From sequence record SRR20825019_354: 64,000 nucleotides of DNA; one strand, given 5' to 3'. The notes beneath the pieces are model-generated. The model searched no databases. It worked only from the letters and a program-made list of their open reading frames with translations, and was not told the DNA's origin. Shown in pieces: positions 21,093-38,041 of this stretch. Each line of letters begins with the position of its first letter. Position 1 is the first letter of the stretch. The position numbers and the translations under genes were made by a program.

Positions 21093-21200
21093 ATTTGTTG
21101 AGATAATTGATTTATTTCTATAGAAAAACACCAATCTTAACATAGCTTTTCATAAGTATTATTGATAGCTTTCTTATTTTTGAAGTCTATAACAATCATT

Positions 21201-22139
21201 ATGACAATTACCCAACTTAATTATGTGCTTGCTGTTGCAGAACATCAGAACTTCACAAAAGCTGCACAAAAAGTATTTGTAACACAACCAACGTTGAGTA
21301 TGCAAATACAAAAGCTTGAAGATGAACTGGATATTCAAATTTTTGACAGAGGTAAAAAACCAATCGAATTAACCGATGTGGGAAGAAAGATCGTAGCTCA
21401 AGCTAGAAATATAGTTAATGAGAGTGATCGTATTAAAGATATAGTAGACCAACAAAAAGGTTACATTGGCGGCGAATTTAAAATTGGGGTAATTCCTACA
21501 ATTATGCCTACGCTATTACCTATGTTCCTTAGCAATTTTACTAAGAAATATCCTAAAGTGAAACTCTCTATTGAAGAGTTGCATACAGAAGCTATAATTG
21601 AGCAATTAAAAGAAGGACATATAGATGCTGCAATAGCTGCAACACCATTAGAAGATGAAGAAATTAAGGAACGAGTTTTATACTTTGAACCATTTGTAGG
21701 TTATGTTCCCAACAACCATAGATTACAGGGAAAAACTAAAATTGATCCTACAGATTTAGATGTTGAAGATATTTTGTTACTACAAGATGGTCATTGTTTT
21801 AAGGATGGTATTCTAAACCTATGTAAAATGGCAGATAGGTATGAGGAAGACCGTTTTAGCTTACAAAGCGGTAGTTTTGAGACGTTAATAAAACTTTCTA
21901 ATGAAGGTTTGGGTATGACGTTATTGCCTTACCTACATACTTTAGATTTAAGGGACCAAGACAAGTCTCATTTAAGAATGTTCACAGATCCTATTCCGGC
22001 TAGAGAGGTAAGTATTATATATCATAAGAGTGAACTTAAAATGCAAATAATTGAAGCATTACAATCTGTAATTGCAGGTGTTGTAAAAGGTGCAATTACA
22101 TTTCAAAATGTTCAGATAATAAGTCCTATATCTAAATAA
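21201..22139 (+). CDS. oxyR: Peroxide-sensing LysR regulator OxyR
   Basis: LysR HTH (FVTQPTLSMQIQKLE); redox Cys pair GHCFKDGILNLC; ATG at 21201 preferred over the upstream start in the ORF track. Confidence 0.85.
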   Translation: MTITQLNYVLAVAEHQNFTKAAQKVFVTQPTLSMQIQKLEDELDIQIFDRGKKPIELTDVGRKIVAQARNIVNESDRIKDIVDQQKGYIGGEFKIGVIPTIMPTLLPMFLSNFTKKYPKVKLSIEELHTEAIIEQLKEGHIDAAIAATPLEDEEIKERVLYFEPFVGYVPNNHRLQGKTKIDPTDLDVEDILLLQDGHCFKDGILNLCKMADRYEEDRFSLQSGSFETLIKLSNEGLGMTLLPYLHTLDLRDQDKSHLRMFTDPIPAREVSIIYHKSELKMQIIEALQSVIAGVVKGAITFQNVQIISPISK

Positions 22140-23992: not shown

Positions 23993-24982
23993 ATGCGAAA
24001 ATTCTTCAGTGTCTTACTCAAGTTTATAGGTATAATAATAGTCTTGCTAATTATTGGCTTTGCTATAATTTATGCGTTATACAATGAGCCACTTCCTAAG
24101 GGAAAAAGTGGAAAAGAGGCAGATGCATTAGCGTGTAAGGTTTTAAATGCTATAAATGAACCAGACTACCTGGAAGCTAGATACGTAGAGTGGAATTTTA
24201 GAAAAACATCCTATAAACTTGACAAAAGATCACAGTTAGCAATATGCACTTGGGAAGATTATAAAGTAAATCTTAATTTAATAGACACTTCACAAAGTAA
24301 TGTTTTTAAAAATGGCCTCACCATTCAAGGTGAAGAGCGTGAGAGTGCTATAAAAAGAGCACTAAAGCACTTTAATAACGATTCGTTTTGGGTGTTGGCA
24401 CCTTTTAAAATATTTGATAAAGGAACAAGCAGACAGGTTATTACATTAGATAACGGCAACAAAGCACTTTTAGTTACTTACACTTCTGGAGGTACAACAC
24501 CTGGCGACAGCTATCTTTGGATTTTAGATAATAATTACATACCTACTTCATTTAAAATGTGGGTAAGCATTATACCAATTGGTGGCTTAGAGGCAAATTG
24601 GAATAATTGGAGAACCACAAATAGCGGAGCTAAAATAGCTTCTAATCGTGAAATATTAGGATTAGAATTACCTCTTAGTGCTATAAAAATTTATAGCAAT
24701 CCTGAAGATGAATTGGTGGAAACTATTACTAGTAATCTTAAACTTAATACGCAGATTAAAGATATTATAATTACAAAACAGATGCGAAAAGATGCATTGC
24801 AAAGACATTATTCTAAAAATAAATTTGAAGCTGATATTAACTTTATAAGACCTGTACTTTCTGAGAACGATATTAATCGCTTTGCAGAAAATATTATGCT
24901 GTTAATGCAAACTAATGATAATGTAGAGCAATTTACATATAATGAAATCTTAAGGTTTAAGATGAGAGATTCTCTTTACTAA
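23993..24982 (+). CDS. Membrane-anchored hypothetical protein
   Basis: N-terminal TM segment; FNNDSFW, GGTTPGDSYLW. Confidence 0.7.
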   Translation: MRKFFSVLLKFIGIIIVLLIIGFAIIYALYNEPLPKGKSGKEADALACKVLNAINEPDYLEARYVEWNFRKTSYKLDKRSQLAICTWEDYKVNLNLIDTSQSNVFKNGLTIQGEERESAIKRALKHFNNDSFWVLAPFKIFDKGTSRQVITLDNGNKALLVTYTSGGTTPGDSYLWILDNNYIPTSFKMWVSIIPIGGLEANWNNWRTTNSGAKIASNREILGLELPLSAIKIYSNPEDELVETITSNLKLNTQIKDIIITKQMRKDALQRHYSKNKFEADINFIRPVLSENDINRFAENIMLLMQTNDNVEQFTYNEILRFKMRDSLY

Positions 24983-31078: not shown

Positions 31079-32617
31079 CTAGCCTAACCAACCTTCACGA
31101 TCAAGACTTCTGTATTGTATGGCTTCTGAAATATGTGTACCTGTAACCTCGTCTGAAGCTTCTAGGTCTGCAATAGTTCTTGCAACTTTAAGAATACGAT
31201 CGTACGCCCTTGCAGATAGGTTTAAACGCTCCATTGCAGATTTTAATAACTGCATCGAGGCTTCATCTAGTTTGCAATACTCTCTAATTTGACGTACTCC
31301 CATTTGCGCATTATAATGTATAGTATCTAGGTCTTTAAAACGCTCAGTTTGCACTTCTCTAGCTTTGGTTACACGTTTTCTTATTTCAACACTACTTTCT
31401 GCTTTTCTGGCATCTGTTAGTTTTTCAAAAGGCACAGGTGTAACTTCAATATGAATGTCTATTCTATCTAATAGTGGTCCGGAAATTTTACTTAAGTAAC
31501 GCTGCATTTCTGCTGGAGAAGAACTTACCGGCGCATCTGGATCATTAAAATAACCGCCAGGACTAGGATTCATACTGGCAACCAACATAAAACTTGATGG
31601 GTAGGTTACTGTAAATTTAGCTCTCGAGATAGTAACCTCCCTATCTTCAAGAGGCTGCCTCATTACTTCTAAAACACTTCGTTTAAATTCTGGTAACTCA
31701 TCTAAAAACAATACACCATTATGAGATAAAGAAATTTCTCCTGGTTGTGGGTACGCACCACCACCTACAAGAGCAACATCACTAATAGTATGATGTGGAC
31801 TTCTAAATGGTCGCTCTGCCATTAAACCAGAATGCTCTCTCATTCTACCAGAAACACTATGAATTTTAGTTGTTTCCAAAGCTTCTTTTAAAGACATTGG
31901 CGGCAAGATAGATGGCAAACGTTTTGATAGCATGGTTTTTCCAGAACCTGGCGGACCTATAAGAATTATATTATGACCACCAGCAGCTGCAATTTCCATA
32001 CAGCGTTTAATTGATTCTTGTCCCTTTACATCGGCAAAATCGAATTCTGGATGATCCAATATTTTGTAAAATTCTTTTCGCGTATCAATAATAGTCTGCT
32101 CAAGTTTAATGTCTCTATCAAAAAAGTCGATTACTTGAGATATGTTATCCACACCATACACTTTTAGGCCATCTACAATAGCAGCTTCTTTTGCGTTTTG
32201 ACTAGGTAATATAAAACCTTCAAAGCCTTCTTCCCTAGCCTTAATAGCTATAGGTAATGCGCCTTTTATAGGTTGTAAAGAGCCATCTAACGAAAGCTCT
32301 CCCATTATAATATACTTTGCTATTTGTTCTGCTTTTATTTGAGACGATGCGATTAAGATTCCTAATGCTAAAGTTAGGTCGTACGCAGATCCTTCCTTTC
32401 GCATATCTGCAGGAGCCATATTTAAGGTGATCTTTTTACCTGGAAGTTTGTAGCCTACATTTTTTAATGCTGCTGCTATACGATAACTACTTTCTTGAAT
32501 TGCTTTATCTGGAAGACCTACTAAATGATAACCAATGCCTTTGTCAACATTTACCTCTACAGTGATAGTTGTAGCCTCTACGCCAAAGACTGCACTACCA
32601 AATACTTTTATGAGCAT
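31079..32617 (-). CDS. comM: YifB/ComM family Mg-chelatase-like AAA+ ATPase
   Basis: [33 protein letters not shown]. Confidence 0.9.
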
Positions 32618-32655
32618 GTGTGCTTGTTTTCTTTAAAAGTAGTGAAAATAAAAAA

Positions 32656-32798
32656 AGAATGCTCCGAGTGGCTATTGTAACGTGTTTATGTTGGTTAATA
32701 CATCACGTATTATATACTCTAAAGTATATAAATCTTTACAGGTTAAGTGCGGTCAACAACTTGAGGCCTGTTAGAATTTGGAGCATTCTATTTTTTCT
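32656..32798. ncRNA. Candidate multi-stem structured RNA or cis-element
   Basis: 14-bp closing stem (32656-32669 with 32776-32789) enclosing three hairpins, with T/A-runs on both sides. Confidence 0.45.
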
Positions 32799-32889
32799 TA
32801 AAATTGGTACTTCAAAATTTAGTTGAAATTTACAGTAGCTATAAATACAGTAAGCTATGTTATTTCATTTAAAATACTTTTAGTTTTCA

Positions 32890-33042
32890 AAGAGGTGAAT
32901 TTTGTTCAAAAGAGTGGAGTTAAATCCTAATTTGGGGCAAAATAAATTTCCTATTTCGAACATTGTTTAACCAATGTGCTTAGTTGGATTTATTCTCCAC
33001 TCTATTTAAACTTCATCTATAAATAGACTCTAACAATTAATC
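32890..33042 (-). ncRNA. Candidate small RNA downstream of the response regulator
   Basis: Long stem (32911-32927 with 32986-33003) and inner ACATTG/CAATGT hairpin; -7-like element at 33048-33055; no meaningful ORF. Confidence 0.4.
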
Positions 33043-33098
33043 TGATGTAAAAATACGAGGATATTGAGTGTTAAGAGTGATTTTACCCTTAACATAGT

Positions 33099-33113
33099 TA
33101 TGGCTGAACCATA
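33099..33113. promoter_or_regulatory. Palindromic operator TATGG-N5-CCATA (copy 2)
   Basis: TATGGCTGAACCATA(C); near-identical to 36202-36217. Confidence 0.6.
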
Positions 33114-33137
33114 CTATTTAATTTTTTAATTAAAATT

Positions 33138-33812
33138 TTAAAGAAAACCCTGTTCTTTAGCTTTTTGGATAAGAGAAACATCGTTTCTTGTGCTAATATC
33201 AAACAGTTTTCGTAAAGATTTCTTTCGCTTTTCTATTGCATTAATAGAAAGTGAAACATATTCTGGTAAGTCTTTTGTTTGAACACCTTTAGAAAGATGA
33301 AATAATATTTTTCTATCCAGCTCATCTATAACATTTCTATTTGTCATGTCATTTCTTATAAACTGCTTAACAGATTTACTATAATATGGAGGATCGTTAT
33401 TTATTGTATCAAAAGCCTTTACCAACTCAGATGAGTTTACATCACTCTTTACTAAGAAGCCGTCTGGGTTCACATTTTTAAGAATACTATGAATACGGTA
33501 ATTATCATTAAACATAGTTAAGAACACAAGCTTAGAAGACGGTGATAACCTGTTTGCTCGTAATCCTAAATCTTCGCCAGATAATATTCTGCCATCTTTA
33601 GATGGAGGCAGCTGTATATCTAAAAATATAATATCGTATGGTGTGCCGGTTGTAGAGTTTTGAATCTTCTCCATACCTTCATCACAATCTTGAGCAGATT
33701 CTATGATAAGTTCATAATCATCTGATGACATATCTTGGAGAGCATTCTTATAGCCCTCGATAATCATAGGATGATCATCTACAATAAGGAGTTTAAGCCG
33801 TTTTTTTGTCAA
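33138..33812 (-). CDS. NarL/LuxR-like response regulator
   Basis: REC domain (IVDDHP, IIFLDIQLP, LTM, GFLVKS) plus C-terminal HTH-like region. Confidence 0.9.
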   Translation of the reverse strand: MTKKRLKLLIVDDHPMIIEGYKNALQDMSSDDYELIIESAQDCDEGMEKIQNSTTGTPYDIIFLDIQLPPSKDGRILSGEDLGLRANRLSPSSKLVFLTMFNDNYRIHSILKNVNPDGFLVKSDVNSSELVKAFDTINNDPPYYSKSVKQFIRNDMTNRNVIDELDRKILFHLSKGVQTKDLPEYVSLSINAIEKRKKSLRKLFDISTRNDVSLIQKAKEQGFL

Positions 33813-35835
33813 AATAATTGGTTTTAGGGACTGTAACCTCTATTAAAGTTCCTTTAGAAAGTTCTGAAGTGATTTTTATTGTTCCCTGCAAATCCTTAAC
33901 TCTTGATGTCATATTTGACAAACCAATTCCTTGTGATTTTTTCTGAACATTAAAACCTACACCATCATCCTCAATAGTAACTTTAATGTGATTTTGATTG
34001 GCATTAAAGGTAAGCAAAACTTCGGTAGCATCTGCATATTTATTTATGTTCTGTATGGCTTCCTGTAGTATTCTGTAAATGTTAATTTTAACCTTACCAT
34101 CTATCATATCCCAATCCAAATCGGTTTGAGTTTGTATAGCATAATTAAAGTTTCCGGCTTTTGATTGTATTTCCAAAAGCTCTTCAATTAAAGAAGTAAA
34201 AACCTGTTCCTCTTTTAACACCTTACTTTGTAGGTTATGAGAAATACTTCGTATCTCCTCTTCTATTTCCTTTAACCTATCTATATAGTTTTGCCTGTTA
34301 TTAATTGCACTTTCATCATGCTTTGTATTTAAACTCCCTAAGCTTAAACGAGTACCAAATAAACTTCCTAAAACACCATCATGGAGTTCTTTAGAAATTC
34401 TCTGTTTTTCACGTTTTCTTCCTTCAGAAATTTTATTTTGCTGATCTATCATTAAATTATAAATCTGCTCATTTGCTAACTGTTGTTCACGTTCTAACTT
34501 AAGTTGATTGTTTTTAGATAATTGACTCTTTATAACGAATAGTAACCCAAAAACCACTAATGCAATTAATAAGCTTATAGTAATATTTCTAACTCGCTCG
34601 CTTAACGCATTGTTCTTATCTATATACTCATCTGTCTCATATCTAATTCTAGCAAATTTATTTTGCATTAAACGTTCTTGAGCTTGCAAACTGTCTGATA
34701 AAACTATGTACCTATTTGCATAAGCTCTAGCATTAAGCGTATCTAATTTAGACAACTTGAGTAAGGATGCTAGTATATCATCTGTATAGTTTGATTCTTC
34801 TGAAAGTTTTTTTGCTTCCTTGGCATAACTTAACGCCTTATCATAATTTCCTTCTCCCAAAAAGTAATCAGATAAATTTAACCTGCTTTCTATCATACCA
34901 GGATCAAACTTTATACTATCTCTTATTTGTTTTGCTTTGTAAAAAAGGTATGGGATCTCTGCATTATTACCGCTCTTAAAGTTAGAGAAGGCAATATTAT
35001 CTAATAGCGCAGAGTAAAGAATCGTATTTTTATAGAATAAGCTATCAACTGTTAAGGCTTGATTAAATGATGTAATTGCATCATCATAACTACCCTTATT
35101 TTTATAAACAACACCAATATTATTAAGAGACACAGCCTTTAAAGTAGGATCACTTTCAAACCTATCTAATGTTTTTAAAGCTTTGCGGTGATAGTATAAG
35201 GCATCTTGATATTCTTCCAACTCATTATTAATGATACCAATATTGTTATAACAGCTATATAAATACTGTTGCTTTCCTAAAGGTTCAAATTTATTTATGG
35301 CTGTAATCGTTGTATTCTCACTACCTATGTAATCCCTTACATTAGTTTGAATGATTGCCATGTTAAGTAACATTTTAGCAGCATTATAATCATTCCCTAA
35401 ATCTTCGAATATAGATTTGGCTTTAAAATAACGTTCGTAAGCTTCTTTGTTTTTGAGTTGTTTATCTCTATAATAAGTTGCAGCATCCCATAATAAAATT
35501 GCTAGCGTTGTGGAATCATTTATTTTTTCAGAAAGCTCAACCCCTTTATTGTTTACATTTAAAAAGTTGGAAGTATCACCTAATTTATAAAACTGATATG
35601 AAATTCTTTTGTAGTAATTATTTTTTAATGAATCTGAATTTATTTGTTCAGCAAATTTAAAAGCTTTTAACAGTATATTGTTTTTCTGTTGGTCAGTTAA
35701 ATCTTGTCTTTTGTATTCATCAATATAAAATTTAAGGCTATCATTTACTGCTAAATTCTTTTCATGAAAATCAAATCCCTCAGAACAAGAGAGTAAAAAG
35801 AATAAAATTAGATATATGTAATATTTATATTTCAT
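33793..35835 (-). CDS. TPR-repeat sensor histidine kinase (HisKA_3/NarX-type)
   Basis: Lipobox-like N-terminus (FFLLSC), TPR-like YNNIG/LNNIG repeats, one TM segment, ISKELHDG H-box, QEAIQNINKYA, DDGVGF, GIGL; ATG at 35835. Confidence 0.9.
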   Translation of the reverse strand: MKYKYYIYLILFFLLSCSEGFDFHEKNLAVNDSLKFYIDEYKRQDLTDQQKNNILLKAFKFAEQINSDSLKNNYYKRISYQFYKLGDTSNFLNVNNKGVELSEKINDSTTLAILLWDAATYYRDKQLKNKEAYERYFKAKSIFEDLGNDYNAAKMLLNMAIIQTNVRDYIGSENTTITAINKFEPLGKQQYLYSCYNNIGIINNELEEYQDALYYHRKALKTLDRFESDPTLKAVSLNNIGVVYKNKGSYDDAITSFNQALTVDSLFYKNTILYSALLDNIAFSNFKSGNNAEIPYLFYKAKQIRDSIKFDPGMIESRLNLSDYFLGEGNYDKALSYAKEAKKLSEESNYTDDILASLLKLSKLDTLNARAYANRYIVLSDSLQAQERLMQNKFARIRYETDEYIDKNNALSERVRNITISLLIALVVFGLLFVIKSQLSKNNQLKLEREQQLANEQIYNLMIDQQNKISEGRKREKQRISKELHDGVLGSLFGTRLSLGSLNTKHDESAINNRQNYIDRLKEIEEEIRSISHNLQSKVLKEEQVFTSLIEELLEIQSKAGNFNYAIQTQTDLDWDMIDGKVKINIYRILQEAIQNINKYADATEVLLTFNANQNHIKVTIEDDGVGFNVQKKSQGIGLSNMTSRVKDLQGTIKITSELSKGTLIEVTVPKTNYFDKKTA

Positions 35836-35863
35836 ACAGAGTTCAAATATATCTAAAACCAAT

Positions 35864-35898
35864 AAAAAAGCCTTTGAAAATTATTCAAAGGCTTTTTT
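35864..35898. terminator. Intrinsic terminator after the small lipopeptide gene
   Basis: AAAAAAGCCTTTGAA-AATTA-TTCAAAGGCTTTTTT. Confidence 0.85.
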
Positions 35899-35920
35899 AT
35901 TTTTTTAAATGTAAAAACTA

Positions 35921-36067
35921 TTATAGTCCTTCATCTTCTCTGTCTGCAGGTACTTGTACCTGATCTCCTACACCGTTGTCAACGTCTTGTGGTAATTCAT
36001 CTGCTTCACAAGCTGCGAATGAGAATGCGAATACTGTAAGAGCGAAAGTGTAAATTAATTTTTTCAT
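35921..36067 (-). CDS. Unannotated 48-aa acidic lipopeptide MKKLIYTFALTVFAFSFAACEADELPQDVDNGVGDQVQVPADREDEGL
   Basis: Manual translation; SPII signal (MKK, hydrophobic core, FAA-C); has its own promoter and terminator. Confidence 0.8.
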   Translation of the reverse strand: MKKLIYTFALTVFAFSFAACEADELPQDVDNGVGDQVQVPADREDEGL

Positions 36068-36150
36068 AATAATGATATTTGTTAGAGTTATATTGTATTA
36101 AATTGTAATCAAATTAACTAAATAAGATTCTTATTTTAAATCTTACACTA

Positions 36151-36180
36151 CAAAAATATATACAAACTGTTACATACCAA
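36151..36180 (-). promoter_or_regulatory. Housekeeping-type promoter of the lipopeptide gene
   Basis: Minus strand TTG-N19-TATTTTTG. Confidence 0.6.
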
Positions 36181-36200
36181 CATTTTAAACCCTATCATAT

Positions 36201-36228
36201 GTATGGTTGAACCATACAATTGGTATGG
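36201..36228. promoter_or_regulatory. Palindromic operator GTATGGTT-G-AACCATAC (copy 1) with an extra half-site
   Basis: Perfect inverted repeat at 36201-36217 followed by AATTG-GTATGG. Confidence 0.65.
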
Positions 36229-36232
36229 CTAT

Positions 36233-38041
36233 TTATTTGCTGGCTATCCAAGCTTCTACTTTTTGAGTTAGAATATCTAACGGTAATGCACCGTCTTTAA
36301 GTATAATATCATGAAACTCTTTAATATCAAAATTGCTTCCTAGCTTTTCCTCAGATAAGTTCCTTAATTCTAATATTTTATTCATTCCAACTTTGTAAGC
36401 GGTTGCTTGGCCAGGCATTACTATATGACGTTCAACCATTTTTATACAGTCGCTTTCTGCATTTGGTGTATTCTTTTTATAATACTCAATACCTTCTTCA
36501 CGTGTCCATTTCTTAGCGTGTATACCCGTATCTACAACTAAACGGCAAGAGCGCCACAATTCCATGGCTAAACGACCAAAATCTGAATAAGGATCTTTAT
36601 AATACCCTACTTCTTTGGGTATATATTCTGAATATAATGCCCAACCTTCTACATAAGCTGTGTAAAAACTATGCTTTCTAAAAGCTGGTATGTTTTCTAG
36701 TTCTTGAGATATTGCAATTTGCATGTGGTGACCAGGTATGCCTTCGTGGTATGCTAAAGCTTCCATTTGGTAGGTAGGCATAGCACTCATATCATAAAGG
36801 TTAACATAATAAGTGCCAGGTCTAGATCCATCTATTGCTGGCTGTTGGTAAAAGGCTTTACCTGCACTTTTTTCTCTAAATGGCTCCACTGCCTTTACTA
36901 CGAGTTCTGCTTTTGGCTTTGTATTAAACAATTTATCTAAGGTACCTTTCATGGTATTGATGATTGCTGTAGCCTTATCTTTATAAGCTTGCTTATCTTC
37001 TACCGTATTTTTATAGTAAAACTTTTCATCTTCACGCATAAATTTAAAGAAGTCCTGCAATGTACCGTTAAAACCTACATCTTGCATAATTTGCTCCATT
37101 TCCTTGTGTATACGAGCAACTTCATTTAATCCAATCTCATGTATTTCATTTGCTGTGAGACTAGTAGTGGTAGTTCTTTTAAGTGCTAAATTATAAAATT
37201 GATCTCCTTTAGGGAATTTCCATACACCATTTTCAACTGTAGCTCTTTGTTGTTGGTCCTGCATTGTAGAAATTAAACCCTCAAAAGCTGGTCTTACTTG
37301 TTCTGTAAGTGCTTTTTCTGCTTTATTTAATAAGTCCTCTTTTTCATCCTTAGGTATTGAAAGTGTATTTACTTTGGTCGTAAAATCTTCCATTAACGCA
37401 CTTACTTCGTTACTCTTTTCAAAAGGTCTTCCTTTAATTAGATTCTTACTATCTCCTATAACTTTCTCAAAAACAAACTTTGGAGGCATTATTCCATTAG
37501 TTTCACGAATGCTCAAATTTTCAGAAACGTCTGCATATACTTTTTCTAAACCTTTTAACCTAGAAATATAAGCCTCTGCATCTTCAACAGAGTTTATACT
37601 ATGCATATTGATAAGGAATGCAGGAATTTCGGCATGCATACCGTGCATTTGATTAACAGGATAATTGTATAATCTAAACGCATAATCTTCAATAGTATGC
37701 TCTAAATCTTGTTTGTATAATGTGTAGCTAAGTGCAGTTTCCTTATTTAAAGCGTTTACATTTAGGCTGTCATTTAAATAAGCCAACCTGTTTTTTGCTC
37801 TCTCAAGTTCTTTTGCTTCTGCTTGGTTAGAAAAATCATCCCATTCTCCATAATTAGTTTTTACTCCTAATTGTGTTTGAAGCATAGGGCTAATTGAAAC
37901 ATCTTCTTTAAATGAGGCTTCAAAAAAATCATTTGCCTTTTTACTTTCTGTTGCTATTGTTTCTTCAGAAATAGGTTCTGAATTTTGTTTGCAAGAGAAA
38001 AGCGCAACGACTAGCGTTGCGCCTATTATATATTTATTCAT
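36233..38041 (-). CDS. DUF885 family lipoprotein (putative metallopeptidase-like)
   Basis: Lipobox LFSC; HEGIPGHHMQ, YVEGWALYSE, RLVVDTGIH, PGQATAYKVG. Confidence 0.9.
   Translation of the reverse strand: MNKYIIGATLVVALFSCKQNSEPISEETIATESKKANDFFEASFKEDVSISPMLQTQLGVKTNYGEWDDFSNQAEAKELERAKNRLAYLNDSLNVNALNKETALSYTLYKQDLEHTIEDYAFRLYNYPVNQMHGMHAEIPAFLINMHSINSVEDAEAYISRLKGLEKVYADVSENLSIRETNGIMPPKFVFEKVIGDSKNLIKGRPFEKSNEVSALMEDFTTKVNTLSIPKDEKEDLLNKAEKALTEQVRPAFEGLISTMQDQQQRATVENGVWKFPKGDQFYNLALKRTTTTSLTANEIHEIGLNEVARIHKEMEQIMQDVGFNGTLQDFFKFMREDEKFYYKNTVEDKQAYKDKATAIINTMKGTLDKLFNTKPKAELVVKAVEPFREKSAGKAFYQQPAIDGSRPGTYYVNLYDMSAMPTYQMEALAYHEGIPGHHMQIAISQELENIPAFRKHSFYTAYVEGWALYSEYIPKEVGYYKDPYSDFGRLAMELWRSCRLVVDTGIHAKKWTREEGIEYYKKNTPNAESDCIKMVERHIVMPGQATAYKVGMNKILELRNLSEEKLGSNFDIKEFHDIILKDGALPLDILTQKVEAWIASK

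Follow-up and report, generated by a model that had tools for sequence, protein, structure and literature searches.

GacA, the response regulator of the GacS/GacA system of Pseudomonas, belongs to the NarL/FixJ class, and regulators of the NarL/LuxR class bind inverted repeats as dimers, for which a 17-bp inverted repeat is a suitable target. The RRNPP receptors of Firmicutes are cytoplasmic TPR regulators that bind imported peptides, and conserved asparagines have a role in them. In the GacS/GacA system, a palindromic upstream element before the small RNA (sRNA) genes rsmX, rsmY and rsmZ has been called a potential GacA binding site (PMC2375449). For the agr system of Staphylococcus aureus, AgrA is described as binding repeats centred near -60 at two promoters, P2 for the signalling genes and P3 for RNAIII (PMC4227749). 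Here, we present a sequence-based computational analysis of a locus in record SRR20825019_354, a stretch of 64 kb of DNA (64,000 nucleotides, nt) that was read on one strand and that, at its full length, is referred to as the window. In this locus, two copies of the palindrome TATGG-N5-CCATA, named sites A and B, flank an operon that encodes a sensor histidine kinase with a periplasmic TPR region and a NarL-class response regulator. Site A lies upstream of the gene for a small acidic lipoprotein and site B upstream of a region that lacks a credible open reading frame (ORF) and holds a candidate sRNA. We propose that the twin palindromes are operators of one dimeric factor, most likely the enclosed NarL-class regulator, within a feedback circuit that has an sRNA as its output, and we give this reading a probability of about 0.5.

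The locus can be compared with each of these systems in turn. As in GacS/GacA, a NarL/FixJ-class regulator is found together with a palindromic element upstream of a small-RNA gene, here a candidate; the palindrome, however, is unrelated in both sequence and spacing, the sensor is a periplasmic-TPR kinase, one of the two targets encodes a small lipoprotein, and the candidate RNA matches no Rfam family. As at agr P2 and P3, one regulator would act at two promoters through repeated sites near -60, with a signalling loop and a regulatory RNA as the proposed outcome, and a LytTR regulator lies beside the small ORF in many homologous flavobacterial loci. Unlike in agr, the regulator of the window is NarL-class, the sites are inverted rather than direct repeats, and the promoters are co-directional and 3.1 kb apart instead of divergent. 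The putative ligand is a lipoprotein tail and not a cyclic thiolactone peptide, and no AgrB-like or other processing gene was recognised next to the system among the domain-scanned ORFs of the window. The operators of the NarL family (the 7-2-7 heptamers of NarL, the RcsB box and the EvgA box) share with the arrangement predicted here a helix-turn-helix (HTH) dimer on an inverted repeat upstream of a promoter, and the fold of the regulator matches. The promoter type, in contrast, is that of the Bacteroidetes sigma-A factor, and the NarL, RcsB and EvgA boxes are not known to share either the half-site GTATGG or its centre-to-centre distance of 11 bp. As in the RRNPP receptors, an extended peptide is predicted to lie in the groove of a TPR domain and to meet invariant asparagines there, but here the receptor would be a periplasmic kinase sensor and its partner is lipid-anchored. 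A search of the literature (open-access full text and bioRxiv) found no paper on the kinase family, its small partner or the motif. The twin operator follows a familiar design, of which it is a new instance; the module of lipoprotein and TPR kinase looks undescribed.

Twin palindromes and their spacing to predicted promoters

A sequence-only reading of the window had pointed to two similar strings, at 36189-36217 and 33086-33114, and had proposed that a single activator acts through them. Both strings are present at these positions and, counted by eye, agree at 23 of 29 positions. The exact motif TATGG-N5-CCATA occurs twice in the window (33099-33113 and 36202-36216) against a mean of 0.03 in shuffled sequence, and two or more copies arose in none of 100 shuffles; with one mismatch allowed, there are 5 matches against a mean of 1.74, a number reached in 4 of 100 shuffles. 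Searching with a 16-mer at up to 3 mismatches added one further weak match, at 24151, within an ORF. The two sites are alike over blocks of 38 nt, which share 79% identity and form the top direct-repeat family of the region, and when the 520-bp gap around site B was compared with the whole window by blastn, the best non-self match was site A (E 0.002). Read off the sequence, the half-sites alternate with a phasing of 11 bp. At site A an additional perfect half-site creates a second inverted repeat, CCATAC-N5-GTATGG (36212-36217 and 36223-36228), and at both sites a weaker half-site, nTAnGG, lies 5 nt promoter-proximal, being the fourth at A and the third at B. The hexamer GTATGG itself occurs 33 times in the window against 18 expected, a count reached in none of 100 shuffles, and most of these copies are intragenic.

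Each palindrome centre had also been placed exactly 51 bp from the first T of a minus-strand -7 element, and this spacing was borne out: TAnnTTTR, which has a per-position frequency of 0.0027 in the window, is unique in the 150 nt downstream of each palindrome, with its first T at 36158 and 33055, in both cases 51 nt from the centres at 36209 and 33106. The -7 consensus of Bacteroidetes sigma-A is given as TAnnTTTG (PMC7366714, PMC9723704). The box is placed at -12 to -5 (PMC9723704), and therefore transcription starts are predicted at the positions listed in Table 1, with the palindrome centres near -63 and the 38-nt blocks at about -75 to -38. Promoter A carries a TTG 19 nt upstream of its -7 box (36178-36180). 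By inspection of the sequence, promoter B has no TTG at the -33 position, and dependence on an activator would agree with a core promoter as weak as this.

Further support for the predicted promoter A comes from homologous loci. The 15-mer TAnnTTT[GA]TAGTGTA, which consists of the -7 box and the next 7 nt, has 6 matches on both strands of 887 kb of loci, each of them 91-185 nt in front of a small ORF, one in the window and the others in five Aquimarina-type loci (L035, L039, L057, L060 and L070). In these Aquimarina-type loci the predicted start is covered by a perfect 5-3-5 palindrome, TTGTA-GTG-TACAA, of which the window (36144-36158) keeps only the left half; in the Aquimarina-type species this element could serve as an operator that overlaps the transcription start.

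The label "NarL-like" given to the enclosed regulator in the sequence-only reading proved right by fold. Pfam Response_reg matches the protein with an E value of 5.1e-11, the receiver being the sole Pfam domain seen, and among 36 family members the acidic pocket and the lysine are conserved, D13, D65 and K122 without exception and D12 in at least 90%. In a sequence search, the regulator aligns over its full length to chains of EvgA, RcsB, NarL, VraR and DesR. An AlphaFold model based on the 36 family members reached a predicted local distance difference test (pLDDT) score of 88.5, and its top PDB matches in Foldseek are full-length NarL-class proteins (spr1814, LiaR, VraR, RcsB, EvgA, DesR and NarL), with E values down to 1.7e-12; DNA-bound RcsB is among the best folds and has the highest TMq, 0.66. 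No other DNA-binding regulator was found within about 10 kb of the sites, and the only further one among the scanned window ORFs of at least 100 aa is a LysR protein (21162-22139), 11 kb away. The kinase-regulator pair is also the sole two-component system in the window. Of the earlier proposal that one activator serves both promoters, the shared motif, the shared orientation and the identical spacing to a Bacteroidetes-type -7 box stand; binding by the enclosed regulator is deduced from adjacency and the type of palindrome only, and its activating role is a proposal.

All relevant genes lie on the minus strand (Table 1), and the proposed circuit would work as follows. The TPR kinase would phosphorylate the regulator, and a dimer of the regulator would occupy both 38-bp blocks, with the palindrome near -63 of a sigma-A-type promoter in each case. 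At promoter A it would activate the gene of the small acidic lipoprotein, whose C-terminal tail would dock in the periplasmic TPR groove of the kinase and close a positive feedback loop. At promoter B it would activate transcription of a structured RNA, about 140 nt long and without an ORF; this RNA, a candidate for an effector sRNA, would be the output of the circuit. The kinase-regulator operon is served by neither promoter A nor promoter B and would keep a promoter of its own, the -7 box of which lies behind the terminator of the small gene. The predicted kinase mRNA would be nearly leaderless, since this -7 box ends 8 nt before the ATG; in Bacteroides, mRNAs whose leaders are very short are described as rare, and those of sensor kinases are listed among them (PMC7366714).

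Table 1. Positions in the window of the features discussed in the text
Feature	Position	Strand	Remarks
DUF885 gene	36233-38041	-	upstream of site A
Additional perfect half-site GTATGG at site A	36223-36228		pairs with 36212-36217
Block A	36184..36221	-	about -75 to -38 if the first T of the -7 box is -12; holds a 17-bp palindrome
Palindrome A, GTATGG-N5-CCATAC	36201-36217		centre 36209
Promoter A, -7 box TATTTTTG	36151..36158	-	exact TAnnTTTG; predicted start near 36146
Small ORF	35921..36067	-	48 aa; lipoprotein-type signal peptide (Cys20), acidic tail
Intrinsic terminator behind small ORF	35861..35901	-	18-pair stem, then T-run; -22 kcal/mol, z -6.0
Kinase operon, -7 box TATATTTG	35844-35851	-	8 nt before ATG at 35835
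Sensor histidine kinase	33793..35835	-	N-terminal signal/lipobox, periplasmic TPR, one transmembrane helix, HisKA_3, HATPase_c
Response regulator	33138..33812	-	224 aa; REC and NarL/LuxR-class HTH; 20-nt overlap with kinase gene
Block B	33081..33118	-	holds palindrome TTATGG-N5-CCATAC (33098-33114, centre 33106)
Promoter B, -7-like box TATTTTTA	33048..33055	-	predicted start near 33043
Candidate non-coding RNA, about 140 nt	32900..33043	-	closing stem 32905-33015 around two hairpins, then UUUU
Second structured element	32650..32795	-	stem AGAAUGCUCC/GGAGCAUUCU, then 7 U; z -5.75
-7-like box TACTTTTA of the yifB-like gene downstream of the gap	32634-32641	-

The small lipoprotein, the TPR kinase and their homologues

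The kinase, whose single transmembrane helix spans approximately residues 427-444 of the 689-aa frame, belongs to a family that is widespread in Flavobacteriaceae. At the protein level its closest relatives are 100% (P0001), 89% (P0002) and 57% (P0003) identical. For comparison at the DNA level, 80 loci (L001-L080) were fetched, in which the kinases are at most 48% and the adjacent regulators at most 58% identical to those of the window. In 54 of the 74 loci that reach 300 nt or more beyond the kinase gene on its upstream side, this gene is preceded, at a distance of 60-650 nt, by a small ORF that has an acidic tail and an invariant lipobox Cys. In seven loci it occurs as 2-3 tandem genes (among them L015, L035, L057, L060, L070 and L076), and in others the protein is longer and carries from 2 to about 10 tandem C-terminal units of approximately 14 residues each (about 10 in L073, 7 in L078, and further examples in L072, L038, L044 and L062). 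These tandem units recall calcium-binding aspartate-rich repeats, a likeness that suggests cation sensing as an alternative role of the longer proteins. An NCBIfam scan of 42 small proteins gave only sub-threshold matches to signal peptides, 6 of the 42 to the PG1828 lipoprotein model. The small protein of the window is 98% identical to a hypothetical protein of Croceibacter, the genus from which the window probably derives. With its signal peptide, invariant Cys, acidic tail and position beside a kinase, it has the features of an exported ligand precursor in an agr- or com-like circuit.

A model of the complex between kinase residues 27-425 and small-protein residues 19-48, calculated without alignments of our own and with a tool untested on peptides and disordered chains, scored 0.87, and the best of three controls scored 0.17; that mark was reached by 51 of 78 solved complexes and by 2 of 108 mismatched pairs. 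Between runs the contacts agreed to at least 69%, and the pLDDT of the partner was at least 59. In the model, tail residues 32-48 contact the concave face of the TPR region, including N206, N247 and N289, all three of which are invariant in kinase alignment A1. A homologue of the small protein with 71% identity (P0122) keeps the core of the tail, VPA (residues 39-41), and differs at 10 of the 17 residues of the contacted segment. The small lipoprotein is thus a conserved and predicted partner of the TPR kinase.

The upstream regions of the small ORFs differ among lineages in the regulator that accompanies them. In 50 of the 69 loci that extend at least 1.5 kb upstream (L010, L018, L028, L035, L050, L061, L066 and L076 among the 50), the small ORF is preceded by the gene of a LytTR-type response regulator, which stands some 0.4-1.7 kb ahead of the kinase; all 8 of those compared with Pfam LytTR matched it. 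In most loci, one kinase therefore appears, from gene order, to serve two regulators. The regions upstream of the small ORFs are rich in TTCACTA-like words, which almost always stand on the coding strand: ACTAAA is found in 32 of 54 upstream regions against 11.6 expected, a figure inflated by the relatedness of the loci, and TTCACTA-type word pairs 21 nt apart occur in 7 of the 35 LytTR loci with a small ORF. The window has neither a LytTR gene nor TTCACTA-type repeats. Among the loci lacking LytTR (the window, Kordia and others), the small ORF is kept in 16 of 19, in one of which (L076) a LytTR gene lies just beyond the distance cut-off, and in a tree of 79 regulators these loci do not form one clade (7 changes); the tree does not place the window. 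Perfect inverted repeats with 6-nt arms are also frequent upstream of the small ORFs, with 37 in 54 loci against 16.4 in shuffles; 6 of the 37 are those of the window itself, and no common motif was found among the 37. When the upstream region of Kordia was aligned with that of the window, GTATTAC-G-GTAATAm was conserved; a comparison with L071 suggests that it may be core promoter and not operator, and it was not counted as support.

The region downstream of site B

The 430 nt between the box of promoter B and the yifB-like gene hold no credible ORF. Two structured elements occupy this region. The first folds far better than shuffled sequence (z -4.04), none of 200 shuffles being as stable, and is a candidate sRNA of about 140 nt by its fold and by its position at the predicted start of promoter B. 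The second has a 10-bp closing stem between an A-run and a U-run, stands just upstream of the -7-like box of the yifB-like gene and may terminate or insulate the transcript that comes from promoter B. Rfam 15 gave no match at gathering score in the window and only chance-level matches (E of at least 2.1) in 32560-33160, and a tRNA search found nothing. A ranking of possible sRNA targets by duplexfold produced unrealistic full-length duplexes and was dropped as uninformative.

Two further features of the region were observed. Positions 32937-32953 of the candidate RNA are complementary over 17 nt, at 94%, to the kinase coding region at 34650-34666, which encodes the most conserved motif of the kinase; in 3.9 kb of DNA this rich in AT, roughly one match of the kind would be expected to arise by chance. 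The ORF-less gap, with site B and both structured elements, is enclosed in its entirety by a perfect 13-nt inverted repeat (32626-32638 and 33136-33148), which may be the footprint of an inserted element or a product of chance in AT-rich DNA.

Weighing the explanations

Several results weigh against operators shared by one enclosed regulator. First, chance alone yields same-arm palindrome pairs not infrequently: for 5-nt arms, spacers of 0-9 and distances of up to 5 kb, 5 such pairs were observed in the window against a mean of 1.72, a number reached in 1 of 100 Markov simulations, and with the spacer fixed at 5 there were 2 pairs against a mean of 0.22, a number reached in 2 of 100 simulations. 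Because same-arm pairs are not rare in the simulations, the arm match alone is weak evidence, and the case rests on 20 of 28 additional flanking matches, on the intergenic position of both sites, on their flanking one operon and on the identical spacing. The last base of the promoter B -7 box is A, where the consensus has G. The Pfam GerE model had no match to the regulator even at E <= 10, and the recognition domain of this NarL-class fold is therefore divergent. The motif is not conserved with the system either: exact TATGG-N5-CCATA occurs in 7 of the 80 loci (kinases at most 48% identical) and in none of them beside the system, the copies lying 0.7 kb or more beyond the regulator gene or some 4 kb away from the kinase gene, with those in L007, L048 and L068 overlapping ORFs. 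No twin element was found in the other loci, where an exact search with 5-nt arms gave only AT-rich pairs and a blastn-short search, insensitive enough to miss the pair of the window itself, returned none besides tandem gene copies in L076. Finally, given the complex tool's lack of testing on such chains, the modelled docking of the tail counts as support for the feedback loop and not as proof.

The alternative that survives best is that the palindromes are real operators of another transcription factor, encoded outside the window, in which case the locus would show co-regulation and not autoregulation. The enclosed regulator is tied to the motif by adjacency and palindrome type only. Its recognition-helix region is strongly conserved across the family, which fits poorly with lineage-specific upstream motifs if one half-site were to be used family-wide. 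In most of the family, moreover, the small gene is probably driven by another regulator, LytTR, because a LytTR gene precedes it and TTCACTA-type repeats mark its promoter. Against a factor from elsewhere, there are just two sites in 64 kb and both bracket the two-component operon, the window has no LytTR gene that could take this part, and the 17-bp inverted repeat has the form expected for a NarL-class dimer. We consider this alternative possible and, on balance, rather unlikely.

Alternatively, the enclosed regulator might bind both sites and act negatively, or serve as a boundary or roadblock, for example by limiting how far transcription of the DUF885 gene and of the kinase-regulator operon runs on into the units that follow. 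Between each palindrome and the stop codon of the minus-strand gene before it there are 16-24 nt, with 24 nt in the case of the regulator gene and palindrome B; a terminator scan found no clear terminator after either the DUF885 gene or the regulator gene; and site A carries 3-4 half-sites over approximately 45 bp, all of which would suit such a role. The geometry, however, is that of an activator, with centres near -63 and identical spacing to the -7 boxes, comparable to the AgrA repeats described near -60 (PMC4227749), and promoter B lacks a -33 element. A negative or insulating action of the regulator is accordingly judged unlikely.

It is improbable that the pair is a relic of a local duplication or mobile insertion, or a chance resemblance, with no present function. 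About 1.7 same-arm palindrome pairs per window arise by chance and the perfect 13-nt inverted repeat around the 520-bp gap could mark an inserted element, but the likeness between the sites is limited to the 38-nt block and the -7 box, with 22 unrelated nt between them, a pattern of selection on sites and not of decay. In addition, no decayed small ORF or remnant of one was found downstream of site B, and the gap sequence, both structured elements included, has no other copy in the window or the fetched loci. Most improbable is that the palindromes are RNA hairpins which terminate or stabilise the DUF885 and regulator transcripts at their 3' ends: both do lie just downstream of stop codons, and 36212-36228 scored as terminator-like, but on the plus strand, whereas the minus-strand hairpins are weak (-8.4 and -13.5 kcal/mol; z -1.8 and -1.9; 7 and 8 of 200 shuffles as stable) next to the true terminator nearby (Table 1) and lack the stable stem and U-run of an intrinsic terminator on the transcribed strand, homologous loci end the regulator gene with clear, ordinary stem-plus-T-run terminators of unrelated sequence, the conserved block reaches well past the stem, and the spacing to the -7 box is fixed.

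Twin operators of the enclosed regulator would make the locus a compact and testable circuit, with two short operators, one regulator and two small outputs. This would be of use in marine Flavobacteriaceae, where the binding sites and regulons of regulators are almost unknown and promoters depart from the textbook type. The wider result is perhaps the more important one, as the conserved small acidic lipoprotein beside TPR kinases points to ligand-receptor signalling. It is tempting to speculate, as a tentative proposal to which we give well under even odds, that these loci represent an undescribed ligand-sensing module of Flavobacteriaceae. In this module, the C-terminal acidic segment of the lipoprotein, 14-17 residues long and present in up to about 10 copies in some species, would be the cognate ligand of the periplasmic-TPR kinase, and two regulators would read the output of the kinase: LytTR on direct repeats in most lineages, and in the Croceibacter lineage a NarL-class regulator on twin palindromes, driving the ligand gene and a regulatory RNA. 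If true, this would be an agr-like, self-activating circuit in Bacteroidota and, if confirmed, it would provide a first handle on self-signalling or envelope sensing in an abundant marine group.

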